A stretch of 64,000 bases of DNA from an uncultured Chloroflexia bacterium (GCA_963811145.1 CAWEQC010000004.1:527752-591751); one strand, 5' to 3'. Shown: positions 4,513 through 63,153, counted from the stretch's first letter. Made by a program: numbers and translations. Notes: a model not told the origin generated them from the sequence alone.

Positions 4513-5367
4513 ATGACCGATGCGCCACCAACCCGCGGCGATGGAAAGCTGACCGTCGCCCTCATCTCCGAGGTGTACTGGGAGCCCGATGGCGCCCAGC
4601 GCCTGAGGGAACGCCTCGCCGAGGCCGCGGATCGAGGGGCGGACCTCGCCGTGCTGCCGGAGCTTCCGCTGAACCGGTGGAGCCCATCGACGAAGGAGCC
4701 ACGGGACGAGGACGCCGAGGGAATGGACGGCGAGCGGACACGGGTGCAGGCCGAGGCGGCGGCCGAGGCGGGCATCGGTCTGGTGGGGGGCATCATCCAC
4801 CGGGAATCCGGCAAGGGACGAAGAACGAGCCGCGCGCTGGTGTTCGATCGGGCGGGCAACCTGAAAGCCACGTACGAGAAGCTGCACCTCCCCGAGGAGG
4901 AGGGCTTCTGGGAGACGAGCCACTACGAGCCGGGCACCGAGGCGCCGAAGCGGATCGACGCGTTCGGCGTGCCGATCGGCGTGCAGCTGTGCTCGGACAA
5001 CAACCGTCCCGAAGGCACGCATCTGCTCGGCGCGCAGGGCGTGGTCGCCATGATCAACCCCCGCGCCAGCGAGGAGCGCGAATACCAGCGATGGAAGATC
5101 GTCTGGCGCGCCAACGCGCTGACGAGCTGCTGCTACATCCTGAGCGTCAACCGGCCGCACCCCGAGAACGGCGTGCTGATCGGCGGGCCGAGCGTCGCCA
5201 TCGATCCGAACGGCAACACGGTGGTCGAGACGACCGACACGCTGGCGCTCGTCACCCTGGACGAGCAGGTCGTCGCCGATGCGCGACGTGACTACCCCGG
5301 CTACCTGCCGGTGCGGGCGCGCCTGTACGCCGATGCGTGGGCGGAGATCGCCGGCCGGGACGGGTAG
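4513..5367 (+). CDS. carbon-nitrogen hydrolase (nitrilase superfamily)
   Basis: Start moved to ATG 4513. Catalytic E-K-C context is present: LPELPL, YEKLHLP, GVQLCSDN. Confidence 0.85.
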   Translation: MTDAPPTRGDGKLTVALISEVYWEPDGAQRLRERLAEAADRGADLAVLPELPLNRWSPSTKEPRDEDAEGMDGERTRVQAEAAAEAGIGLVGGIIHRESGKGRRTSRALVFDRAGNLKATYEKLHLPEEEGFWETSHYEPGTEAPKRIDAFGVPIGVQLCSDNNRPEGTHLLGAQGVVAMINPRASEEREYQRWKIVWRANALTSCCYILSVNRPHPENGVLIGGPSVAIDPNGNTVVETTDTLALVTLDEQVVADARRDYPGYLPVRARLYADAWAEIAGRDG

Positions 5368-5379
5368 GGAGCGAGCGGC

Positions 5380-6109
5380 TCAGCCCTCGGCGAGGCGGAA
5401 CTGGCCCTTGGCGAGCAGGACGTCGCCGGTGTAGATCCGCATCTCGTACAGCCCCGGGCCCCAGTCCCTGACGAAGCTCCCCGCGTCGCCGGCCACGAAT
5501 CCGGCCAGCGACGACGCCGGGTCGACCCTCAGCTGGTTGCCGGCGGCCCCCACGATCTCATCGCCGTCGGTTCCGTCGTCGTTGATGCGGATGACCTGCT
5601 CGCCGATGGTCGCCACGCCGAACGGGGTCGGTGGAGGCGATGGAGTGGGCGAAGACCATGCCGGGCGTGAACGTCTCGACCGGCTCGATGACCTGGTTGT
5701 TCGCGTCGAGCCGCTCGCCGAACACGACGGTGGCGGGAAGCGGCGGCGGCGGAGTCGGAGTGACCGCCACCGAGGCCGTTGCCGATGGCGCCTCGGAGGG
5801 AGCCTCCGTCGGCGAGGGAGTCGGCGTCGGGGTGGGAGCCGCGCCGATGGTCGGGTCGGTGGGGTTCAGGCTCGAGACGAAGAGGCCGAGCAGCAGTGCG
5901 CCGATGATGGTGCCGATGACGGCGGCGAGCGAGATGAGCGAATCACGGTCGGTGGGATAGCGTCCGGTCGGTGCGATGCGCGCCTCGCCATGCCGGAGAA
6001 CGACGCCGCAGGAGCGGCAGACCTGTGCCCATGCCGGATTCGCGCGGCCGCAATTGAAGCAGTCGACGGTCTCGTCGGTCATCGGGGTCGCACAGTCCTC
6101 CTCAGGCAT
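5380..6109 (-). pseudogene. zinc-ribbon / single-TM / PT-linker protein, frameshifted (one extra base near 5624-5627)
   Basis: The 5' part (6109-5558) encodes CFNCG...CRSCG, a TM helix and a PTPTPSPTE linker. The reading continues in the 5616-5380 frame (FGVATIGEQVIRINDDG...). Total length is 3n+1, and the junction is at a C4 run on the coding strand. Confidence 0.6.
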
Positions 6110-6306
6110 CGGCCGCTGGCGGCGCGAAGCCTAGCATGCAGGTGGCCGCCGGCGGTGAGAACGCCGACGGCCGGGTGGACGACCCCGCAACGGGTCGGCC
6201 GCCGCAGAGTCTACCCGCCCGGGCGTGGCCCGTTCGTTGGCCCGTCTCATGCATCGGCAGGGAATATGCGAGCTGGCCCGATCGCGCAGTGCTACCGTAG
6301 CGCGCC

Positions 6307-8355
6307 GTGACGCGATCTCGGCAACCACCACCCGACGACAGTCGGGTCGACCCCCTCCTCGAAGTCCGCGAGAAGCGACGCGGCAAACGCCCAGGCGATG
6401 CCTATGTCCGCATCGTGCGGCCGTTCGAGGACGCCTTCCAGAAGGGCGGCGATGAGGGCGAGCTGATCGCCACCGAGCGCACCGTGCTCGAGCGCCCCGG
6501 GTGGACCCGCCTGATCCGGCGCATCCGAACGATCCTGATCGGCCGGCCGATTCATAGCGAGCGGGAGGAGCACGAGCGCCTCACGAAGCTCAAGGGACTG
6601 GCGATCTTCTCGAGCGACAACATCAGCTCGTCGGCCTACGGACCCGAGGAGATCATGCGCGTGCTGGCCCTGGCCGGGACCGGCGCGCTGAGCCTCACCC
6701 TCCCGCTCGCCGGCCTCATCACCGTCATGCTGGCGATCGTCACCGTGTCGTATCGGCAGACGATCAAGGCCTATCCGAAGGGCGCGAGCAGCTACATCGT
6801 CGCCAGCGACAACCTCGGCAGCACGATGGGCGTGCTCGCAGCGGCCGCCCTCCTCATCGGCTACGTGGTGACCGTCGCCGTGTCGGTGTCCGCCGGCGTG
6901 GCGGCGATGACCTCGATCCTTCCGCAGATCCACGACGGTCGCGTCTGGATCAGCGTGGCGCTGGTGCTCCTGATCATGCTCGGGAACCTTCGTGGCATTC
7001 GCGAGTCGGGGACGATCTTCATGGTCCCGACGTACGCGTACATCGTCGTCATGCTCGGGATCATCGGCTACGGGGTCGCCCGGGTGACATTCGGCGAGGT
7101 TCCCGCGTTCGCGCCGCCGGCCGGTTGGGAGCCGGTCGAGCAGGGGGCCCAGGCTCTTGGGCTGTTCCTGATCCTGCGGGCGTTCAGCCAAGGGGCCGTG
7201 GCGCTGACCGGCGTCGAGGCGATCAGCGACGGCGTGCCCGCCTTCAAGCCGCCTGAGTGGAAGAACGCCCGGACGACGCTGACCTGGGCCGCAATCGTGT
7301 TCGCCATCCTGTTCGTCGGAATCGCCTACCTGCTCAGCCGGCTCGGGATCCAGCCCGATGGGAGCGAGCAGTACACGGTGCTGAGCCTCCTGGTCCGGAC
7401 CCTGACCGGCGAAGGCCCGATCCTGGTGTTGGCCCAGGTGGCCACCGCGCTCATCCTCGTGCTCGCCGCCAACACGTCGTTCGCCGACTTCCCGCGCCTC
7501 TCCTCGTTCCTGGCGCGCGACGGGTTCCTGCCGCGCCAGTTCGCGTTCCGCGGCGAGCGCCTCGCGTTCACGACCGGGATCGTGGCGCTCTCGCTCATGG
7601 CGATCGGCCTTCTCGTTGGATTCAACGCAAGCGTCAGCGGCCTCATCCCGCTCTACACGCTCGGCGTGTTCATCGCCTTCACCCTGTCCCAGGCCGGCAT
7701 GCTCGTGCGCTGGTGGCGCCGGCACGAGCCCGGCTGGCGCCGCGGCCTGGCGATCAACGGGCTCGGCGCGCTGACGACCGCCGTGGTTGCGCTCGTCGTC
7801 GGCAGCAGCAACTTCTTCCAGGGCTCGTGGCTGGTCATCGTCCTGGTGCCGCTGCTGATGATGCTGCTGCTCGGTATCAACCGGCACTACCGCGACATGG
7901 ACAGGGCGCTCGCCCTCGACCGCATCCCGGATCGGCAGGAGGTTGCGCCGCGACCGATCGTGATCGTGCCGATCTCGAGGCTCGATCGCCCTGCGCGCCA
8001 GGCCATCGCCTTCGCGAACTCGATCAGCCAGGACGCGGTGGCGGTGCACGTCACCAACGACCCGGATGCGGCCGATGCGATGCGCGAGCGCTGGCCGGAG
8101 TGGGCCGGATCCACGGAGCTGGTGGTGGTCGAGTCGCCGTATCGGGCCCTCATCGGTCCGTTGCTGGCCTACATGGACGCGCTCCAGCGACAGGCTCCGG
8201 ATCGGCCAATCCTGGTGGTGCTCGCCGAGTTCGTGCCGAAGCACTGGTGGGAGAACCTGCTGCACAACCAGACCGCCCTCCGGCTCAAGCTGCGGCTCTT
8301 CTCCCGCCGCAACACGATCGTGGCGGACGTTCCCTACCACCCGAACGTCGACTGA
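6307..8355 (+). CDS. kimA: KimA-type K+/H+ symporter (APC superfamily) with C-terminal cytoplasmic domain
   Basis: Full-length resemblance to B. subtilis KimA as I recall it: LIGRPIHSEREEHERLTKLKGLAIFSSDNISSSAYGPEE, ALTGVEAISDGVPAFKPPE, LAANTSFADFPRLSSFLARDGFLPRQF, IPLYTLGVFIAFTLSQ. The C-terminal strings also match: VIVPISRLD..., ESPYRALIGPLLAY, HWWENLLHNQTALRLKLRLF. Confidence 0.85.
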   Translation: MTRSRQPPPDDSRVDPLLEVREKRRGKRPGDAYVRIVRPFEDAFQKGGDEGELIATERTVLERPGWTRLIRRIRTILIGRPIHSEREEHERLTKLKGLAIFSSDNISSSAYGPEEIMRVLALAGTGALSLTLPLAGLITVMLAIVTVSYRQTIKAYPKGASSYIVASDNLGSTMGVLAAAALLIGYVVTVAVSVSAGVAAMTSILPQIHDGRVWISVALVLLIMLGNLRGIRESGTIFMVPTYAYIVVMLGIIGYGVARVTFGEVPAFAPPAGWEPVEQGAQALGLFLILRAFSQGAVALTGVEAISDGVPAFKPPEWKNARTTLTWAAIVFAILFVGIAYLLSRLGIQPDGSEQYTVLSLLVRTLTGEGPILVLAQVATALILVLAANTSFADFPRLSSFLARDGFLPRQFAFRGERLAFTTGIVALSLMAIGLLVGFNASVSGLIPLYTLGVFIAFTLSQAGMLVRWWRRHEPGWRRGLAINGLGALTTAVVALVVGSSNFFQGSWLVIVLVPLLMMLLLGINRHYRDMDRALALDRIPDRQEVAPRPIVIVPISRLDRPARQAIAFANSISQDAVAVHVTNDPDAADAMRERWPEWAGSTELVVVESPYRALIGPLLAYMDALQRQAPDRPILVVLAEFVPKHWWENLLHNQTALRLKLRLFSRRNTIVADVPYHPNVD

Positions 8356-8398
8356 CCACGCGCCGCGGCCCGGCTCGTACCATGCGAGCGTGGAAGAC

Positions 8399-9940
8399 AT
8401 GAACAGCGGCTGGCGGCGGACAGTAGCCCGGGTCGTGGCCGTGCTCGTGGGGCTTGGGCTGACGACGGCGATCATCTCCGCGCTCGAGGCGGGCCTCAGG
8501 CTCGACAACGCTTCGTCCCTCTACCTGGTCGTGGTGGTCAGCGTTGCCAGCCGATGGGGGACCTGGCCGGCGATCGCCACGGCACTGGCCGGATCGCTCG
8601 TCTACAACCTCCTGTTCGTGGAGCCGCGCTTCACGCTTGCGGTCGATCGTTCCGAGGAGCTGCTGACCCTGCTGCTGCTCCTCTTCGTGGGCGTCGTGAT
8701 CGGACGGCTGGCGGGGGACCAGCGGTCGCGTGAACGGCTCGCCCGGCGAGGGGAACGCGAAGCTCGGGCGCAGTTCGCTATCACCCGCGAGCTGACCTCT
8801 GCGCACCGTCTCCCACAGGCGATGCAGGCGGTCGTCGAACGGATCGGCATCGAGGCCGGGATGAAGCGCACCTGGATCGGGCTTGGCGCGACGATCCCGC
8901 AGGAGCGCGTGGCGGCGGACACGTCTCCGGGCGACCCGCTGCCGCCGATCGGCACGCACTCGGTGCTGACGAGGGACAGCGAGGAGGACGCCGCGACGTG
9001 GATCCGCATCCGCCCGCCGTCGCGGGCTCCGAGTGCCGCGCATGGGCTCCATCGGATCGAGCTGCGGGCCGGCGGCGATACCTACGGGTCACTCTGGGCG
9101 CAGCGTACCGACGGCGGCGGTGTCCCCGAGCTGGAGGAGACGCGACTCATGGCGGCGGCCGCGGATCAACTGGCGCAGGCGGTGCGGCGAGACCGCATCG
9201 CTGCCCGCGCGGCGGAGATGGAGATCGAGCGGCGCAGCGACCAGTTCCGCAGTGCGCTCCTCGATTCGGTGTCGCACGACCTCCGCACCCCGCTCGCGAG
9301 CATCCGGGCGGCCGCCGGCGGCCTGGCCGATCCGGCCGTCGAGGCGGACATCGAACAGGTGAGGTCCACCGCCCAGTCGATCGACGAAGAGGCCCAGCGC
9401 CTCAACCGGCTGGTCGGGGCGCTGCTCGACATGAGCCGCATCCAGGCCGGCGCGCTGACCGCGGAGATCGACGTCATCCCGCTCAGCGAGCTGATCGAGC
9501 CGGCGGTCGCGCGCATGCGCCCGCTGCTGGACGGCCATCCGTTGAGCGTCGACCTGCCCGTCGACCTGCCCAGCGTCCGCGTCGATGACGTGCTGATGAT
9601 CCAGGCGCTGACGAACCTGCTCGAGAACGCCGCCCGCCACACGGCCGCCGGTGCGCCGATCTCCGTTCGCGCCTCGGCCGGACCGGACGGTTCGCGCGTG
9701 GAGCTCGTGATCGAGGACGGCGGTCCCGGCGTCCCGAGCGAGGCGATGCCGCATCTGTTCGAGCGGTTCTACCGCGGCCCGCTGACGGCGGACGGTGGCC
9801 GGCGTCGCGGCATCGGCCTTGGGCTGGCGGTGGTGCACGGTCTCGTCGACGCGATGGGGGGAACGGTGAGCGCCGGCAGGAGTCCGCTCGGCGGCCTGGC
9901 CATCACGCTGATGCTGCCCACGGAGGGCGCATCGTCGTGA
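8399..9940 (+). CDS. kdpD: KdpD-family sensor histidine kinase lacking the N-terminal KdpD/Usp module
   Basis: Start moved to ATG 8399. The protein has a DUF4118-like TM block (LYLVVVVSVASRWGTWPAIATALAGSLVYNLLFVEPRFTL) and an H-box SVSHDLRTPL. N/G boxes are LLENAARHT and DGGPGVP...GIGLGLAVV. At 513 aa it is much shorter than the roughly 850-900 aa of canonical KdpD. Confidence 0.85.
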   Translation: MNSGWRRTVARVVAVLVGLGLTTAIISALEAGLRLDNASSLYLVVVVSVASRWGTWPAIATALAGSLVYNLLFVEPRFTLAVDRSEELLTLLLLLFVGVVIGRLAGDQRSRERLARRGEREARAQFAITRELTSAHRLPQAMQAVVERIGIEAGMKRTWIGLGATIPQERVAADTSPGDPLPPIGTHSVLTRDSEEDAATWIRIRPPSRAPSAAHGLHRIELRAGGDTYGSLWAQRTDGGGVPELEETRLMAAAADQLAQAVRRDRIAARAAEMEIERRSDQFRSALLDSVSHDLRTPLASIRAAAGGLADPAVEADIEQVRSTAQSIDEEAQRLNRLVGALLDMSRIQAGALTAEIDVIPLSELIEPAVARMRPLLDGHPLSVDLPVDLPSVRVDDVLMIQALTNLLENAARHTAAGAPISVRASAGPDGSRVELVIEDGGPGVPSEAMPHLFERFYRGPLTADGGRRRGIGLGLAVVHGLVDAMGGTVSAGRSPLGGLAITLMLPTEGASS

Positions 9941-10677
9941 CCAGTCACCCTGTCGGGGCGAGGCTGCTCTTGGTGGAGGATGACGAGCCGACCCGGCACG
10001 CCGTCGCCGCCAACCTGGCCGCCCACGGCTACGAGGTCCGACAGGCGGCCGATGGAGAGGAGGCACTCCGGCTGTGGGAGGAGGGTCGCCCCGACCTCGT
10101 CCTGCTCGATCTCGGGCTGCCGGGGATCGACGGCCTGGCCGTCGTGCGTCGCGTGAGGCGGGAAGCCACCACTCCCATCATCATCCTGTCCGCCCTCGAC
10201 CAGGAGCGCGACAAGGTGGCGGCCCTCGATGCCGGTGCCGACGACTACCTGACCAAGCCCTTCGGGATGGATGAGCTGCAGGCACGCGTTCGGGCGGCGA
10301 TGCGCCGCGCCCTCGGACCCGCGGCCGATGCGGCCGGCCAGGTTCGCATCGGCCCACTCGAGCTGGATCCCGTCCGGCGCAGGGTCACGATCGGCGGTGA
10401 GGAGCTGCACCTGACGCCGCGCGAGTACGAGCTGCTCAAGGCGCTCGTGGCCAACGCCGGCCGCGTCGTGAGCCGCGGACGGCTCCTGCGCGCCGTGTGG
10501 GGCCTCGAATACGCGAACGAGGGCCACTACCTCCACGTCCACGTGGCCGGCATCCGTCGCCGGATCGCGAGTGCGGACCCCACCGGCTACCTGGCTCACC
10601 TCATCGTCGCCGAGCCGGGCGTCGGCTACAGGGTCCGCGACGCGGAGGAGCTCGCGGCGGAAAACGAGGGATCTTGA
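9937..10677 (+). CDS. kdpE: OmpR-family response regulator, KdpE-like
   Basis: GTGA overlap with the kinase. Receiver motifs LLVEDDE, LVLLDLGLPG and LTKPF, a winged helix, and the KdpE-typical HYLHVHVAGIRRRI...GVGYRV. Confidence 0.88.
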   Translation: MTSHPVGARLLLVEDDEPTRHAVAANLAAHGYEVRQAADGEEALRLWEEGRPDLVLLDLGLPGIDGLAVVRRVRREATTPIIILSALDQERDKVAALDAGADDYLTKPFGMDELQARVRAAMRRALGPAADAAGQVRIGPLELDPVRRRVTIGGEELHLTPREYELLKALVANAGRVVSRGRLLRAVWGLEYANEGHYLHVHVAGIRRRIASADPTGYLAHLIVAEPGVGYRVRDAEELAAENEGS

Positions 10678-10692
10678 GCGCTTCTTGAGCGC
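10672..10692 (+). promoter_or_regulatory. tandem direct repeat TCTTGAGCGC-T-TCTTGAGCGC (11-bp period), candidate response-regulator site
   Basis: Two perfect 10-mers at 10672-10681 and 10683-10692 span the kdpE stop codon, 54 nt upstream of the next ORF. The function is inferred only. Confidence 0.35.
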
Positions 10693-10745
10693 CTAGGCCC
10701 GGCCAGCGGCCGTTTCCTCTTGGAGCTCGGTGGGACGCTCGAGGC

Positions 10746-10991
10746 ATGACCCGCGTGGATGGCGGCGAGACGCCTCATATCGACAGCTCGCTCGATCCGA
10801 TTCGAGCGGCGATCGAGATGGTCGCCGATGGATCGGCGATCCGGGTGACGGTGTCCACGCGTGCTCCCGCCCAGCTGCTGCCCGCCGCACGCGCCCTGGC
10901 GCGGGCTGCCGGCGTCGCGGTCGAGTCTCCCGAGGAGACGGACGGCGGCTCCGACCTCGTGGTGGAATCCGCACCGTCACGCATCGCCTGA
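10746..10991 (+). CDS. hypothetical small protein (81 aa), translationally coupled to the second kimA
   Basis: A/V/D/E-rich with high GC3, whereas the overlapping 10730 frame is R/G-rich junk. The TGA at 10989-10991 is followed 2 nt later by GTG 10994 of kimA-2. Confidence 0.5.
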   Translation: MTRVDGGETPHIDSSLDPIRAAIEMVADGSAIRVTVSTRAPAQLLPAARALARAAGVAVESPEETDGGSDLVVESAPSRIA

Positions 10992-10993
10992 GC

Positions 10994-13015
10994 GTGGCCG
11001 ATCGGCGGATCGATCCGCATCTCGAAGTCCGCGAGGCCAGGCGCGGCAAACGCCCCGGCGACGCCTACATCAAGATCGTCCGCCCGTACGAGGAGATCTT
11101 CGAGCGCGGGGACGACGGCGAGCTGATCGCGACCGAGCGAACCGTGCTCGATCGCCCCGGCTGGACGCGCGCGTTGCGCAAGCTGCGGACGGTCCTCATC
11201 GGCCGGCCGATCCACAGCGAGCGGGAGGAGCACGAGCGCCTGTCGAAGACGAAGGCGCTCGCCATCTTCAGCAGCGACAACATCAGCTCATCGGCGTACG
11301 CCACCGAGGAGATGATGCGGATCCTGGTCATGGCCGGGATCGGCGCCATCTCGTTCACCATGCCGTTGACGATCACCATCTGCGTCGTGCTGGCCATCGT
11401 GGCCACCAGCTACTGGCAGACGATCCGCGCCTATCCGAACGGAGCCAGCAGCTACCTCGTCAGCAGTGACAACCTTGGCAGCACGGCGGGCCTGGTGGCG
11501 GGGGCCTCGCTCCTCATCGACTACACGCTCACGGTGGCGGTATCGGTGTCGGCGGCCGTGGCCGCCATCACATCGGTCATCCCGGAGCTGTTCGCCGAGC
11601 GTGTCCTGCTGGCGGTGGCGATCGTCGTCGTCCTCATGCTCGGCAACCTGCGTGGCGTGCGCGAGTCCGGGACGATCTTCATGGCACCCACCTATCTCTA
11701 CATCGTCGCCATCCTCGGGATGGTCGGCATCGGCCTCGTCCGGCTGGCGACAGGAACGTTGCCCGACTACACGCCCCCCGCCGGGTGGCTGACCGCTGAC
11801 GCCGGCGGGGAGGCCCTCGGGATCCTGCTCATCCTGCGTGCGTTCAGCTCGGGAGCCGCGGCGCTGACCGGTGTCGAAGCGATCTCGGACGGCGTGCCGG
11901 CGTTCAAGCCCCCCGAGTGGCGGAACGCGCGGGTCACGCTGCTGTGGGCGGCGGGCATCTTCGCCGTCCTTTTCCTCGGCATCAGCTTCATGGCCAGCAC
12001 GATCGGCATCATCCCGGATCCGACGGAGGAGCAGACCGTCCTCTCGCAGATCGCGCGGCAGGTCGTCGGGGATGGCGCATTCTTCGTGGTGATCCAGGTC
12101 GCGACAATGCTCGTCCTGGCCCTGGCGGCCAACACCGCGTTCGCCGACTTCCCGCGCCTCAGCTCGTTCCTTGCGCGTGACAGCTTCATGCCTCGCCAGT
12201 TCGCATTCCGCGGCGAGCGGCTGGCGTTCACGACCGGGATCGTTGCGCTCTCCGGGCTGGCCGCCATGCTGCTGGTGGTCTTCGATGCCAGCGTCACGGC
12301 GCTCATCCCGCTCTACACACTGGGCGTCTTCATCGCCTTCACGCTGTCGCAGTCGAGCATGGTCGTGCGATGGTGGCGTCGACGCGAGGTCGGCTGGCGA
12401 CGCGGCCTGATCATCAACGGCATCGGCGCCATCACGACCGGGGTGATCGCCCTCATCGTCGTGGAGAGCAAGTTCCTGTCGGGTGCCTGGATGGTGGTGG
12501 TGGCCATCCCGCTGCTGGTGCTCCTCATGCGCGCAATCCGAGGCCACTACCGCTCGGTGGAGCGAGGGCTTGCGCTGGCGCGCATTCCGGCCGGCGGCCG
12601 CGAAGCTGCACGCCCCATCGTCATCGTGCCGATTGCCCGGCTCGACGAGCCGGCGCGGCAGGCGATCGCCTTCGCGAACTCGATCTCGGACGAGGCGACG
12701 GCGGTGCACGTCACGAACGATGGCGATGCCGGCGACGAGCTCCGCGGCCAGTGGCCGGAATGGTCGGGCGGAGCCGAGCTCGTGATCATCGAGTCGCCGT
12801 ATCGGGCGCTCGTCGGTCCGCTGCTCGCCTATCTCGACGTGCTCCAGCGCCAGGATCCGACGCGCCCAGTCCTCGTCGTGCTCTCGGAGTTCGTGCCTCG
12901 CCACTGGTGGGAGAACCTCCTCCACAACCAGACGGCGCTCCGTCTGAAGCTCCGGCTCTTCTCGCGGCCGAACACGATCGTGGCGGACGTTCCGTATCAC
13001 CTGCGCGGAAGGTGA
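10994..13015 (+). CDS. kimA: KimA-type K+/H+ symporter, second paralogue
   Basis: Collinear with 6307-8355 from RIDPHLEVREARRGKRPGDAY to the C-terminus. Start set at GTG 10994, where similarity to paralogue 1 begins. The ORF-track start 10730 is rejected. Confidence 0.82.
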   Translation: MADRRIDPHLEVREARRGKRPGDAYIKIVRPYEEIFERGDDGELIATERTVLDRPGWTRALRKLRTVLIGRPIHSEREEHERLSKTKALAIFSSDNISSSAYATEEMMRILVMAGIGAISFTMPLTITICVVLAIVATSYWQTIRAYPNGASSYLVSSDNLGSTAGLVAGASLLIDYTLTVAVSVSAAVAAITSVIPELFAERVLLAVAIVVVLMLGNLRGVRESGTIFMAPTYLYIVAILGMVGIGLVRLATGTLPDYTPPAGWLTADAGGEALGILLILRAFSSGAAALTGVEAISDGVPAFKPPEWRNARVTLLWAAGIFAVLFLGISFMASTIGIIPDPTEEQTVLSQIARQVVGDGAFFVVIQVATMLVLALAANTAFADFPRLSSFLARDSFMPRQFAFRGERLAFTTGIVALSGLAAMLLVVFDASVTALIPLYTLGVFIAFTLSQSSMVVRWWRRREVGWRRGLIINGIGAITTGVIALIVVESKFLSGAWMVVVAIPLLVLLMRAIRGHYRSVERGLALARIPAGGREAARPIVIVPIARLDEPARQAIAFANSISDEATAVHVTNDGDAGDELRGQWPEWSGGAELVIIESPYRALVGPLLAYLDVLQRQDPTRPVLVVLSEFVPRHWWENLLHNQTALRLKLRLFSRPNTIVADVPYHLRGR

Positions 13016-13059
13016 CGGCTCACCAAGAACGTTTTCAGGACTAGTACGTTAGTACTGGT

Positions 13060-13518
13060 ATGGGGATGTATGCGCCTGCCCGCTCCGTCGTCGAGCACCT
13101 GATCGAGCGAGCTGGCCACCTGACAATCGATGAGGCCGCCGACGTCTACCAGGCCCACGCCGCGCGCATCCTGATCCAGGGAACCGCGGCAGAACGCCAG
13201 GCGCTGCTGAAGGCCCGGCGAGCCGCCGTCAAGGCGGGGCGCTTGGCTGAGTACGAGCAGGCGCGGCACGCAGCGGCCAGCGCCTGGCGGCACGCGCTGC
13301 CTGAGACGCAGGGGCCATGGCTGGCGGTCGGCGCGGCGATTGCCAACGCTGCAGGTGTGCTCGTCGTCGAGGACATCCTCGATGACAAGCTGTTCAACCT
13401 GCTGGTCGGGCCATGGCACCAGGCGATCGGCGAGCTGATGCCGGTCGGCCCGGGGATGCTCACGCCGATGGGGCCGGGTGCGCATGCCACCGAGCGCGCG
13501 CACGGCAGGGTCCGCTAG
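13060..13518 (+). CDS. hypothetical protein (152 aa)
   Basis: Coding-like composition with no recognisable domain. An AT-rich TAGTACGTTAGTACT lies immediately upstream of the ATG. Confidence 0.5.
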   Translation: MGMYAPARSVVEHLIERAGHLTIDEAADVYQAHAARILIQGTAAERQALLKARRAAVKAGRLAEYEQARHAAASAWRHALPETQGPWLAVGAAIANAAGVLVVEDILDDKLFNLLVGPWHQAIGELMPVGPGMLTPMGPGAHATERAHGRVR

Positions 13519-13590
13519 ATCGGTCTTTTCGGCACTTCACGGAGCGGGCACGCTGCTTGCGAGGCGAGGGTCAGCCTCGCCGATTGGAGT

Positions 13591-13806
13591 GTGCCCGTGG
13601 AGAAGCGCCGGATCGCACTCCAGCTGCGCGCCATCCGAGTGATCCTCCGGGTGGAGCAGCCGCGACACAACGCGGCAACCATGCACGATGTGCGCGCGCG
13701 CGCCCGTCAGATGCTCGACGGGCTTGAGGAGGCGGTGCAGCCGTTCCCGGATCTGAAGGAGGAGCTGGCCACGCTTCGGCGTGAGGTGGAGGCAGACGGG
13801 GCCTAG
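13591..13806 (+). CDS. hypothetical small protein (71 aa)
   Basis: High GC3 and a helical, charged sequence. The stop shares a CTAG with the convergent receiver gene. Start uncertain: GTG 13591 or an internal ATG. Confidence 0.4.
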   Translation: MPVEKRRIALQLRAIRVILRVEQPRHNAATMHDVRARARQMLDGLEEAVQPFPDLKEELATLRREVEADGA

Positions 13807-15368: not shown

Positions 15369-15588
15369 GCGAGTCACGAGGCCATCTTCTGCGGCGATGG
15401 CCGATTTCAACCCCGCCCATTTGTACCGTGGCCCCGCGTACTCTGAGGCGAGGTTCGGCGCGACATGACAACGTGGTCATGACGGCGCCGCCGGAAGGAT
15501 TCATCCTCGAGCGACGCCGGGCGGCCTCCTCCCCCAGGGACGCGCCCGGCTTTTCAGCGCCTTGCAGGGTGAAAGGGCGCTCAACCGC

Positions 15589-15792
15589 CTACGAGGCCAC
15601 GTCACGGGCGGCGACGGGCCGTCCGTCATGGGTGAGCGTGGCATCCCACTTCTCCCAGACGTGGCTTACGCCGCAGGCGAGGCAGGCATTCAAGAACTGC
15701 GGGTTATCGTCCAGCTCGTCGAGGCTGGAGATCTTCAATCCGCTGGGAACCAGATCCCCGCTCACGGGGCACATGACCAGGACGTACAGCAT
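15589..15792 (-). CDS. small Cys/His-containing protein (67 aa)
   Basis: ATG lies behind GAGGGGA. High GC3. Residues CPVSG...CLACGVSH suggest a metal-binding knuckle. Divergent from the cyclase gene. Confidence 0.55.
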   Translation of the reverse strand: MLYVLVMCPVSGDLVPSGLKISSLDELDDNPQFLNACLACGVSHVWEKWDATLTHDGRPVAARDVAS

Positions 15793-15937
15793 GGCTTCCC
15801 CTCACGCTCGACGTGAGCATGCGAGCAGGCGGCCGCTTCGGCATTACGCCATCGTCATCCCGGGACGTTTCTCTGACCCTTGGGAGTGGCGGATCGAGAC
15901 GCGAGATGAGTGCGACGGCCGCGATATCCTCACTGAG

Positions 15938-17146
15938 ATGGCTGAATACTCCCGTCGGGATGCCGCCAATCGCTCTGGGGTCGATGCCAGCTACATCGAC
16001 CGATTGGTCGAGCTGGGGATCATCGTCCCCGACGCAACTGGCCGGTTGACCAAAGGGGATGTGCGCAGGGCGCAGATGGCCCAGACCCTGGAGTCGGCAG
16101 GGATCGCGCCGGAGACCTTGGCAGCCAGCATCAGGGACGGCGGCCAGTCACTCGGCTTCATGGATGCTCCGACCTACGCGCGCTTCGCGACGCTGAGCGA
16201 CGAGACGTTCGAGGAGCTGAGCGATCGAACTGGCCTGCCATTGGACCTGCTGAAGTTGATACGGGAGGCGGCAGGGGGAGCGATGCCGAGCCCCGATGAC
16301 CGGATCCGCGAGGATGAGCTGGCGGTTGTGCCGCTCATCGAGGCCGGATTGGCGATGGGCTTTCGGCCGATCTCGATCGCTCGTCGGCTGCGGGTGCTTG
16401 GCGACAGTCTGCGTCGGGTGGCCGAGACGGAGGCGGACGCCTACCGCGCGGACCTCATGGAGCCGATGCTCGCAAGTGGCGCCACGGCCGCCGAGGTGAG
16501 CGCCACGTCCACGTCCCCGGATACGCTCCAGCTGGACCAGGCGATGGATGAGGCTGTGCTCGCAATCTGGCACGCACAGCAGGTACGGCCATGGACGGCG
16601 GACCTCATCACCATCTTCGAGATATCGATGACCGAAGCCGGCCTGCTCAAGCCGATCAGACATCCGCCGGCGATGTGCTTCCTCGATATCACTGGATATA
16701 CCCGCCTGACCCACGACCGAGGTGACGAGGCCGCGGCCGACCTCGCCGAGCGCCTTGGCGGCCTTGTGCATCGCAGCGCGACCGAGCGCGGAGGCCGCCC
16801 GGTGAAATGGCTCGGCGATGGCGTGATGATCTTCTTCCGCGACCCCGGGCCTGGTGTGATCGCCGCCCTGGAGATGGTGGATGGCATCGCGTCCGCCGGT
16901 CTTCCCCCCGCGCACGTCGGCCTGCACGCGGGGCCTATGCTTTCACAGGCGGGCGACTACTACGGGGAGACGGTGAACGTGGCGTCGCGGATCGCCGAGT
17001 ACGCGCGGGCGGGCGAGGTGCTGGTTACCCAGGAGGTCATCGATGCGTCTGTCGATGTCGATGCGGCCTTCACTGAGATCGGTCCGGTTGAGCTCAAGGG
17101 AATCCCGGGAGCCATTCCCCTCCACCGGGCTCATCGCCCCGGGTGA
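15938..17146 (+). CDS. MerR-like HTH fused to a class III adenylate/guanylate cyclase domain
   Basis: Start moved to ATG 15938. N-terminus is MAEYSRRDAANRSGVDASYIDRLVELGII (HTH-like). C-terminal cyclase motifs: FLDITGYTRL, KWLGDGVMIFF, GLHAGPM, GETVNVASRI. Confidence 0.8.
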   Translation: MAEYSRRDAANRSGVDASYIDRLVELGIIVPDATGRLTKGDVRRAQMAQTLESAGIAPETLAASIRDGGQSLGFMDAPTYARFATLSDETFEELSDRTGLPLDLLKLIREAAGGAMPSPDDRIREDELAVVPLIEAGLAMGFRPISIARRLRVLGDSLRRVAETEADAYRADLMEPMLASGATAAEVSATSTSPDTLQLDQAMDEAVLAIWHAQQVRPWTADLITIFEISMTEAGLLKPIRHPPAMCFLDITGYTRLTHDRGDEAAADLAERLGGLVHRSATERGGRPVKWLGDGVMIFFRDPGPGVIAALEMVDGIASAGLPPAHVGLHAGPMLSQAGDYYGETVNVASRIAEYARAGEVLVTQEVIDASVDVDAAFTEIGPVELKGIPGAIPLHRAHRPG

Positions 17147-17787: not shown

Positions 17788-17874
17788 TGGTGCCGGAGGT
17801 GAGACTTGAACTCACACGAGCTTGCGCTCATCGGTGTTTGAGACCGACGCGTCTGCCGATTCCGCCACTCCGGC
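17788..17874 (-). tRNA. tRNA-Leu(CAA), type II, CCA encoded
   Basis: Minus-strand read: GCCGGAG..GTCGGT-CTCAAAC-ACCGAT..variable arm..GTGAG-TTCAAGT-CTCAC-CTCCGGC-A-CCA. All stems are Watson-Crick. Confidence 0.93.
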
Positions 17875-59945: not shown

Positions 59946-60032
59946 GCCGAGGTGGCGGAATAGGCAGACGCGCTAGGTTCAGGACCTAGTGACCGCAAGG
60001 TCGTGTGGGTTCAAGTCCCTCCCTCGGTACCA
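59946..60032 (+). tRNA. tRNA-Leu(CAG), type II, CCA encoded
   Basis: Anticodon arm CTAGG-TTCAGGA-CCTAG, long variable arm, T-loop TTCAAGT. It has a G1-U72 wobble and one U-U mismatch in the T-stem (GTGGG/CCCTC). Confidence 0.8.
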
Positions 60033-60052
60033 CCCCGATCTGGTGGTTCTGG

Positions 60053-60137
60053 GCCCAGGTGGCGGAATTGGTATACGCGTACGTTTGAGGGGCGTATGAG
60101 GCAACTCATCCGGGTTCAAGTCCCGGCCTGGGCACCA
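60053..60137 (+). tRNA. tRNA-Leu(GAG), type II, CCA encoded
   Basis: Acceptor stem GCCCAGG/CCTGGGC, anticodon loop TTGAGGG, T-arm CCGGG-TTCAAGT-CCCGG. Confidence 0.92.
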
Positions 60138-60203
60138 CTTCAGTCAAGACCGATGCGCCGCTCGCCACACAATTGCGAGCGGCGTTTCGTTGCTCAGCGT
60201 GCG

Positions 60204-60337
60204 TGACCCGTGGGGCGGGTCAACGCGCGGAGGAGCGGCGCAGAACCCAGAGCTCCGACGCGATCTGACCCGTAACTGCGGGTGAAACGCCGACGAGCGC
60301 GAGCTCCTTCCACCATTGACCCGTGGGGCGGGTCAAC
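60204..60337. repeat. three hairpin repeats in the tRNA spacer (two perfect 21-mers plus one degenerate copy)
   Basis: TGACCCGTGGGGCGGGTCAAC occurs at 60204-60224 and 60317-60337. A degenerate copy TGACCCGTAACTGCGGGTGAAAC starts at about 60265. Each contains the 7-bp inverted repeat TGACCCG/CGGGTCA. Confidence 0.8.
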
Positions 60338-60362
60338 CGATGCATCGGCTAGGATGTTCGCC

Positions 60363-60439
<77 letters not shown>

Positions 60440-62750: not shown

Positions 62751-62826
62751 GCCGAGGTAGCTCAGTCGGTAGAGCACCGCCCTGAAGAGGCGGGTGTCGT
62801 CAGTTCGATTCTGACCCTCGGCACCA
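62751..62826 (+). tRNA. tRNA-Phe(GAA), CCA encoded
   Basis: Acceptor stem GCCGAGG/CCTCGGC and anticodon arm CCGCC-CTGAAGA-GGCGG. Confidence 0.93.
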
Positions 62827-62856
62827 GCACCGCGGTATCATCGGGCGCACAAGCGG

Positions 62857-62932
62857 GCGGAAGTGGCTCAGTTGGTAGAGCATCACCTTGCCAAGGTGAG
62901 GGTCGCGGGTTCGAGTCCCGTCTTCCGCTCCA
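62857..62932 (+). tRNA. tRNA-Gly(GCC), CCA encoded
   Basis: Acceptor stem GCGGAAG/CTTCCGC and anticodon arm TCACC-TTGCCAA-GGTGA. Confidence 0.93.
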
Positions 62933-62988
62933 TTTTCATGTCCGGCTGGTTGCAATCGGGGTTGACCTGCTAGCGTGAGACGAGGCGT

Positions 62989-63062
62989 TGCCCCGTCGTC
63001 TAGTGGTAGGACAGCGGACTTTGGATCCGTGAACCGAGGTTCGAATCCTCGCGGGGCAGCCA
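62989..63062 (+). tRNA. tRNA-Gln(TTG), CCA encoded
   Basis: Acceptor stem TGCCCCG/CGGGGCA (U1-A72), anticodon arm GCGGA-CTTTGGA-TCCGT, 4-nt variable loop. Confidence 0.9.
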
Positions 63063-63078
63063 GCCGATCGATTCGCGT

Positions 63079-63153
63079 GGCGACGTGCCCGAGTGGTCCA
63101 GGGAGCGGTCTGCAAAACCGCGTACACGGGTTCGATTCCCGTCGTCGCCTCCA
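63079..63153 (+). tRNA. tRNA-Cys(GCA), CCA encoded
   Basis: Acceptor stem GGCGACG/CGTCGCC and anticodon arm GCGGT-CTGCAAA-ACCGC. Confidence 0.9.

Follow-up and report, generated by a model that had tools for sequence, protein, structure and literature searches.

The five genes at positions 6307-13015 of a 64-kb stretch of DNA (the window) from an uncultured soil Chloroflexota of the class Limnocylindria, a lineage represented by metagenome-assembled genomes (MAGs), appear to be known parts wired in a new way: the promoter that drives the Kdp pump in relatives here seems to drive a small protein and a KimA-type K+/H+ symporter. All five genes lie on the plus strand, in the order kimA1, sensor histidine kinase, response regulator, an open reading frame (ORF) of 81 amino acids (aa) and kimA2. 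We read them, with a probability of roughly 0.7, as a K+-uptake locus built on a split-KdpD/KdpE regulatory module that would drive the small protein and kimA2. That the two-component system would control kimA2 is well supported by comparison with related loci; its control of kimA1 is not supported. The original prediction, made from the sequence alone, was that the two-component system may have been rewired onto the symporters. We retain this proposal for kimA2, on the strength of the cassette synteny, the promoter module, and the shared small protein and recognition helix, and abandon it for kimA1, which has no regulator site and whose orthologues stand alone.

The window has a GC content of about 69%, and close homologues of its proteins carry the labels Candidatus Limnocylindria or Chloroflexota. 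All five reading frames are backed by third-position GC (GC3), including the 81-aa ORF, which was absent from the original list of genes; it follows the regulator gene, and 2 nt separate its end from kimA2. Every feature that the original prediction had read from the sequence was confirmed at its coordinates. The claim that the window is devoid of kdpFABC agrees with our search, in which tblastn with Limnocylindria queries (E<=1e-3) found no KdpA, KdpB, KdpC or KdpD-N in the 64 kb. A literature search found no paper linking KdpDE to kimA.

The 513-aa kinase has only the Pfam domains DUF4118, HisKA and HATPase_c, arranged as a four-helix DUF4118 membrane block, a linker, and then HisKA plus HATPase. 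As previously noted, Pfam finds in it neither the KdpD-N domain (PF02702) nor a Usp domain, by which a full-length KdpD would be recognized, and its gene is joined to that of the OmpR-type regulator by a GTGA overlap. It is collinear with positions 394-884 of the 895-position KdpD model (E=6.6e-63), and its best PDB match is KdpD (6LGQ_C, 7e-33; next match 1e-25). Split KdpD proteins have already been described, with a serine-kinase chain encoded after the pump genes and a separate transmembrane (TM)/GAF/DHpCA histidine kinase (PMC11018627). In Limnocylindria relatives, homologues of the window kinase adjoin kdpABC and a separate KdpD-N/Usp gene, as checked by Pfam. The latter encodes a protein of 390-400 aa (PF02702 plus Usp) and follows kdpC, and KdpD is therefore split in this class. 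Architecture, collinearity and linkage in relatives all identify the window kinase as the histidine-kinase half of a split KdpD; its linkage to kdpFABC is not seen within the window. The description "truncated KdpD" was thus right insofar as the N-terminal half is absent from the kinase, and wrong insofar as this is the normal kinase half of a split KdpD in Limnocylindria and not a truncation. The N-terminal domain of KdpD phosphorylates KdpB, and the missing half is a KdpB-specific serine kinase (PMC11018627). Since that domain acts on KdpB, a KimA-linked kinase would need no N-terminal half.

The regulator consists of Response_reg and Trans_reg_C domains (OmpR-type), and its best PDB matches are E. 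coli KdpE (4KNY, 9.6e-48; 4KFC) and the KdpD partner in 6LGQ. Its segment EGHYLHVHVAGIRRRI aligns with HSHYLRIYMGHLRQKL of E. coli KdpE, which substantiates the KdpE-typical HYLHVHV..IRRRI string noticed earlier. All related regulators, Kdp-linked and KimA-linked alike, conserve this recognition helix. The protein therefore combines an OmpR-type receiver and winged helix, closest similarity to KdpE, and pairing with a KdpD-type kinase.

Relatives were collected in a scan of one genome per species with the kinase alignment as query, and the best 80 of 225 hits gave 79 loci. All belong to Chloroflexota/Limnocylindria MAGs, though a few bear other taxon labels. Flanking ORFs were clustered and then checked with Pfam. 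Many homologous kinase-regulator pairs are followed by, or convergently face, KdpA, KdpB and KdpC together with a separate KdpD-N/Usp protein; many others adjoin KimA. The loci with orthologous kinases (identity >=52%) all have the order kinase-regulator-small ORF-kimA2, in at least two unrelated genomic contexts, with a single exception (L008). In other Limnocylindria, the same promoter module is followed by the Kdp-linked order small ORF-(receiver)-kdpABC-kdpD_N. In more distant clades, Kdp-linked and KimA-linked pairs are mixed, and some loci have kinase-regulator-(small ORF)-kimA without kdp.

This distribution bears on how the locus arose: by duplication and re-targeting, or by loss of kdp genes from an L008-like operon. 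Under the second history, an ancestral operon kinase-regulator-promoter-small ORF-kdpABC-kdpD_N-kimA2 would have lost its kdp genes, and kimA2 would always have been the last gene of a kdp operon. L008 lends this some credit. It lies inside the kinase clade of the window, its kimA2 is 85% identical, the same Rieske, CN-hydrolase and Zn-ribbon genes lie upstream, and a receiver protein, kdpA, kdpB and KdpD-N lie between its regulator and kimA2. Packing of kimA with kdp genes is common, as the tandem loci described below show. However, L008 is a single nested tip, and in all other clade members small ORF and kimA2 are joined by the same 2-6 nt junction, so that an ancestral L008 would demand many independent identical deletions; a secondary insertion of kdp genes is more parsimonious on the kinase tree, and the distant clades too include kimA loci of this type lacking kdp. 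We therefore regard operon decay as unlikely. The present-day wiring would be the same under either history.

Several tandem loci (L019, L020, L022-L025, L028 and L036) carry both KimA and Kdp sets. Their full order is kinase-regulator-[box]-kimA-kinase-regulator-[box]-small ORF-(receiver)-kdpABC-kdpD_N, in which kimA stands directly at the start codon of the promoter, without a small ORF. Since the second kinase begins only a few nt after kimA, a transcriptional cascade between two paralogous KdpDE-type systems is possible in these K+ islands. Between the small ORF and kdpA there is often a stand-alone receiver protein of about 120-170 aa, in which Pfam finds Response_reg alone. It occurs in L008 (12474-12983), in L009 (about 5950-6310, before kimA2) and in many Kdp-linked loci (e.g. 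L022, L036, L039, L052, L053, L058 and L076), and is absent from the window. It could be a phosphate sink or a second kinase output.

Directly after the stop codon of the regulator gene lies a module of conserved sequence and fixed geometry. It begins with a direct repeat of CTTGAGCG with an 11-bp period, followed by a spacer of about 24 nt whose sequence varies, the element CCTCTTGG, a TG, and a -10-like hexamer of the pattern nAnnnT placed 6 nt before the start codon of the small ORF. Across 34 distinct sequences, the first repeat is always 76-78 nt away from the start codon, a constancy to be expected of an activator-dependent promoter. The site between regulator and small ORF is the only perfect one in the window. 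In 1.59 Mb comprising the window and related loci, the core TGAGC-N6-TGAGC was observed 56 times against 4.5+/-2.5 expected from Markov simulations, and nearly all copies either directly follow a regulator gene or precede small ORF, kimA or kdp genes. The module is the same in kind at Kdp-linked and KimA-linked loci, and at the former it is placed directly before the kdp operon. Regulators of the OmpR/PhoB family, KdpE among them, classically bind two direct repeats spaced by one helical turn, and 6-bp direct-repeat half-sites are described for KdpE (PMC3264566). From this conserved module before kdp and kimA operons we infer that the regulator would bind and activate the promoter under K+ limitation. 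Because the -10-like hexamer is only 6 nt from the start codon, the geometry suggests a leaderless or near-leaderless transcript beginning at the 81-aa gene. A metagenome-wide scan for further regulon members with the exact operator gave at least 120 matches; among the matches listed, most were chance matches in unrelated DNA and four were true modules (three KimA-linked and one Kdp-type), and two additional candidates (L094 and L174) proved spurious.

The adjacency of these genes could be meaningless for kimA: the two-component system would then control a kdpFABC operon elsewhere, the repeat would be autoregulatory, a terminator or a roadblock, and kimA1, kimA2 and the small ORF would be constitutive. 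The source genome may contain such an operon outside the window, a terminator-like hairpin is predicted once, at 10700-10712, and a simple scan for a consensus sigma-70 promoter returned 0 matches. However, a terminator between regulator and small ORF was rejected as a general feature, since the hairpin of the window is not kept across the 34 sequences (mean z -0.41; below -1 in 8 of them). The fixed repeat-to-start distance and the presence of the same element before kdp operons also speak against meaningless adjacency, and at four loci (L029, L042, L044 and L071) the core is distant from the regulator and still upstream of small ORF, kimA or kdp genes. In the MAGs of the cassette clade, no second KdpD-type kinase locus was found among the best 80 of 225 genome hits, which is a weak argument, given this cut and the incompleteness of MAGs. 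Taken with the promoter evidence, these points make meaningless adjacency quite improbable.

Control of kimA2 by the split-KdpD/KdpE module nevertheless has to be weighed against a number of observations, among them the possible distant kdpFABC operon and the missing sigma-70 consensus. In NCBIfam, the kinase reaches 213 bits with the KdpD equivalog (cut-off 1123), and the regulator 185 bits with KdpE (cut-off 325), level with RpaB, MtrA and PhoB; as all of these lie at about 185 bits and below their cut-offs, NCBIfam alone does not separate KdpE from the other three. The first repeat copy overlaps the stop codon of the regulator, and coding could explain part of its conservation; L044 and L071, where the repeat lies away from any stop codon, run counter to this explanation. 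The CTTGAGCG repeat is unlike every published KdpE site, although published sites also differ mutually. Our model leaves the CCTCTTGG element unexplained and assumes the signal to which a kinase lacking the N-terminal half responds. The evidence as a whole is comparative and comes from a lineage of uncultured MAGs.

Both permeases are predicted to be KimA-type K+/H+ symporters. KimA1 matches B. subtilis KimA (PDB 6S3K, also 8B70 and 8B71) with E=1.8e-134: residues 72-678 align with residues 4-604 of the 607 in the KimA chain, so that both the 12-TM LeuT-fold domain and the cytoplasmic domain at the C-terminus are covered. The two permeases share 69% identity over 668 residues, and the earlier recognition of two KimA paralogues along their whole length was thus correct. 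Functional residues described in PMC6994465 were mapped onto the KimA1-6S3K alignment. In KimA, D36, Y43, T121, T230 and Y377 serve K+ binding or gating and E233 proton coupling (PMC6994465). All of these as well as S125 are conserved in KimA1 (D104, Y111, T189, S193, T301, E304 and Y450 for D36, Y43, T121, S125, T230, E233 and Y377), and the motifs around them are identical in KimA2. The pocket for cyclic di-AMP (c-di-AMP), with residues taken from PMC10284832, is largely kept (R337, Y118, P479, V506 and H579-N580-Q581); S582 is replaced by Thr, and N237 is replaced by Asp in both copies.

A fixed difference separates the paralogues at the position of KimA D117: KimA1 has Gly there (Gly185), like 109 of 109 scorable orthologues of it, and KimA2 has Asp (Asp176), like all 17 scorable KimA2-type proteins. 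In B. subtilis, uptake proceeds without D117, a K+ site in the cytoplasmic tunnel for which a role in trans-inhibition by cytoplasmic K+ has been proposed (PMC6994465). Since D117 is not required for uptake, the change is compatible with membership of the KimA subfamily, and the two types of paralogue may differ in their feedback control. That the permeases are instead APC-superfamily carriers of another substrate, such as amino acids, and that the kinase senses a signal other than K+, is highly improbable: Pfam assigns only the generic AA_permease_2 fold (88-103 bits), public annotations read "amino acid transporter" or "APC family permease" and KimA1 lacks the D117 carboxylate, dispensable as this is, but the 452-bit full-length match includes the KimA-specific cytoplasmic domain, among PDB sequences KimA1 matches KimA alone and no amino-acid transporter at E<=1, the amino-acid transporter model of NCBIfam gives 20.7 bits (cut-off 556.8), the residues for K+ binding, gating and proton coupling are all present, and the permease genes are linked to Kdp genes across the class. 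A better match to amino-acid transporters than to KimA, which would have contradicted the original prediction, was therefore not observed.

At the head of the locus, kimA1 appears to be a separately evolved type of paralogue, placed upstream of the kinase in this sublineage only. Its orthologues (85-86% identity) stand alone in other contexts (L001 and L002), its adjacency to the kinase is confined to the window and a close relative (L003), and five loci (L007, L009, L010, L011 and L017) have the same upstream genes as the window without kimA1. No regulator box was found upstream of kimA1 or of the kinase, and matches with three mismatches in the window were fewer than expected by chance. Most likely, kimA1 is expressed independently. 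No terminator-like signal precedes the kinase, and kimA1 transcription may therefore read through into the kinase-regulator genes. A riboswitch upstream of kimA was considered and rejected: neither ydaO/c-di-AMP nor any other Rfam family was found in 5300-13600; gathering thresholds returned tRNAs only, and the E-value mode over this region a chance MicL match only.

The promoter module is followed first by the gene of the 81-aa protein, whose homologues (77-104 aa) occupy the same position in KimA-linked and Kdp-linked loci. The two sets are homologous (hhalign: probability 96.6%, E=5.5e-10, 65 columns). Homologues form 51 database clusters, all named hypothetical or unnamed at source, and no Pfam family was matched at E<=1-5, seven divergent homologues included. 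The AlphaFold2 model (predicted local distance difference test, pLDDT, 70) has an alpha-beta-alpha-beta-beta order, and Foldseek found no PDB match to it below E=0.04. We also considered that the small ORF might be left over from the C-terminus of KdpD-N/Usp, and dropped the idea because Kdp-linked loci contain this ORF together with intact KdpD-N genes. The protein would be the first gene, possibly leaderless, of regulator-dependent operons with kdpABC or kimA as cargo, except in one clade of tandem loci that lacks it before kimA. Its retention with either cargo makes a part in the signalling module seem more likely than a KimA-specific one; more speculatively, it could be co-induced as a partner and modulate, for example, the N-terminally truncated kinase or the complex of regulator and DNA.

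The shared N-terminal extension of the two KimA proteins, which according to the original prediction is not known from Bacillus KimA, is indeed evident from the alignments of KimA1 with 6S3K and with KimA2: about 70 residues are conserved between KimA1 and KimA2 and absent from the Bacillus protein. A second, more divergent version exists in another Limnocylindria KimA clade, and both contain the motif G(R/K)xPGDxx(V/I)R(V/I)xRP. The extension matches no Pfam family (E<=1-5) and was found by an exhaustive HMMER search in only 36 clusters, mostly fragments, among 1.84 billion representative proteins. The predicted structure of KimA1, from a shallow alignment, is too poor for interpretation (mean pLDDT 62, about 30 over residues 1-64). 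Specific to this lineage, the extension may provide a KUP transporter with a new regulatory domain in the cytoplasm. It is tempting to speculate, with rather low confidence, that the small protein is an unrecognised feedback component of split-KdpD signalling, that the extension has such a regulatory function, or both.

The proposed mechanism can be outlined as follows. The 513-aa protein would act as the membrane/GAF/kinase half of KdpD and, by analogy with KdpD at scarce K+, would phosphorylate the KdpE-like regulator. The regulator would bind as a tandem dimer at CTTGAGCG-N3-CTTGAGCG and activate a promoter that has no -35 element and relies on the -10-like hexamer. Transcription would start at or just before the ATG of the 81-aa gene, leading to expression of the small protein and kimA2. 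A K+/H+ symporter would thus be the output instead of, or beside, the Kdp pump in this lineage. The features of the locus are listed in Table 1.

Table 1. Coordinates of genes, predicted regulatory elements and other features in the 64-kb window
Feature	Position	Strand	Evidence or remark
kimA1, predicted KimA-type (KUP family) K+/H+ symporter paralogue, 682 aa	6307..8355	+	full-length PDB 6S3K match
kimA1 N-terminal extension, residues 1-71	6307-6519	+	conserved with kimA2; absent from Bacillus KimA
Sensor histidine kinase, split-KdpD kinase half, 513 aa	8399..9940	+	Pfam, KdpD model, PDB 6LGQ_C
KdpE-like OmpR-family response regulator, 246 aa	9937..10677	+	Pfam, PDB 4KNY; start overlaps kinase stop (GTGA)
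Predicted regulator binding site, direct repeat CTTGAGCG-CTT-CTTGAGCG	10673..10691	+	11-bp period; enrichment
Repeat copy 1, CTTGAGCG	10673-10680	+	overlaps regulator stop codon
Spacer CTT	between CTTGAGCG copies	+	direct repeat, 11-bp period
Repeat copy 2, CTTGAGCG	10684-10691	+	direct repeat
Variable spacer, about 24 nt	after repeat copy 2	+	sequence varies among relatives
Conserved core-promoter region: CCTCTTGG, TG, GACGCT, 6 nt, ATG	10716..10745	+	fixed geometry in relatives
CCTCTTGG	10716-10723	+	conserved element
TG	10731-10732	+	conserved
-10-like hexamer GACGCT, pattern nAnnnT (A position 2, T position 6)	10734-10739	+	6 nt before ATG at 10746
Conserved small protein, 81 aa	10746..10991	+	GC3 0.79; homologues in 51 clusters
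kimA2, predicted KimA-type K+/H+ symporter paralogue, 673 aa, GTG start	10994..13015	+	69% identical to KimA1
kimA2 N-terminal extension	about 10994-11185	+	conserved with kimA1
Fixed paralogue difference at KimA D117, KimA1 Gly185	6859-6861	+	alignment
Fixed paralogue difference at KimA D117, KimA2 Asp176	11519-11521	+	alignment
tRNA genes	59946-60436 and 62751-63150	+	Rfam
tRNA gene	17791-17874	-	Rfam

The remaining genes of the window are housekeeping genes (PolA, Fpg, UvrABC, SecDF, RecJ, RapZ and others), and no further K+ genes were found among them. As the surroundings consist of core functions such as UvrABC, PolA, SecDF and RecJ, the K+ locus lies in the chromosomal core, without an obvious mobile element. 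Rfam revealed eight tRNA genes, of which seven form groups of three and four towards the 3' end of the window and one is on the minus strand. A 572-aa protein with adenylate/guanylate cyclase catalytic and adenylate-cyclase regulatory domains is encoded at 15428-17146 (plus strand), 2.4 kb downstream of kimA2.

A non-coding element of about 95 nt was noticed at 6125-6220 (minus strand), beside the start of a divergent Zn-ribbon gene (5558-6109, minus strand). It fills much of 6110-6306, a region that the original prediction had marked out for tests of KdpE binding. The element also occurs in L003, L007-L011, L013, L016 and L017, with an almost invariant core (GGCCGCCGGCGGTGAGAACGCCGACGGCC) and conserved flanking strings (TAGACT and GCTAGGCTT); its distance is fixed to the Zn-ribbon gene and variable to kimA1 or the kinase. 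It folds into two hairpins, better on the minus strand (-42.8 versus -29.5 kcal/mol), and its G-U pairs are valid on that strand only. Hairpin 1 shows compensatory changes at four pairs, a number reached by 0 of 500 shuffles. No Rfam family matches the element, which is probably a structured 5' leader of the Zn-ribbon gene.

In comparison with the split KdpD of Deinococcus, Anabaena and Alicyclobacillus (Silberberg et al. 2024, PMC11018627), the window kinase likewise comprises the TM/GAF/DHpCA half only, and the Limnocylindria relatives likewise encode the KdpD-N/Usp chain right after kdpC. The difference lies in the window itself, where kdpFABC and KdpD-N were not found and the promoter would drive the small protein and kimA. 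With B. subtilis KimA (YdaO), the window KimA proteins have in common full-length homology, the cytoplasmic c-di-AMP-binding domain and the K+/H+ residues. They differ from it in the N-terminal cytoplasmic extension, in the Gly of KimA1 at D117 and in the Asp of both copies at N237; their Thr at the S582 position is that of S. aureus KimA. The window genes also lack an upstream ydaO riboswitch and are linked instead to a two-component system. E. coli KdpE, the best structural match of the window regulator, has the same HYL..Y/H...LR.KL recognition helix. In the predicted window site, two direct repeats are spaced by one helical turn and have their centre roughly 60-70 bp before the inferred start, and the E. 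coli KdpE site probably lies at a comparable distance from its transcription start. The half-sites of the E. coli kdpFABC promoter are AT-rich, whereas CTTGAGCG is GC-rich; the regulator genes follow the target operon in E. coli and precede it in the window; and the first target gene is kdpF in E. coli and, in the window, a gene for a soluble 81-aa protein, with a secondary symporter as the predicted target.

The Kdp pump is the textbook target of KdpDE, and in the studied Firmicutes KimA is controlled by c-di-AMP, via a riboswitch and by direct binding. Comparative genomics here points to a natural case of different KimA control, in which the KdpD kinase half and KdpE would drive a KimA symporter, and the analysis yields a concrete predicted operator and promoter. 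The locus may offer a cleaner system for asking what the C-terminal half of KdpD senses without KdpB or the N-terminal serine-kinase domain. It also ties two uncharacterised elements to K+ uptake, namely the 81-aa protein family and the N-terminal extension of a KUP transporter. Finally, the annotation of thousands of Limnocylindria genes now labelled "amino acid transporter", "KdpD" or "hypothetical" would gain from this reading.

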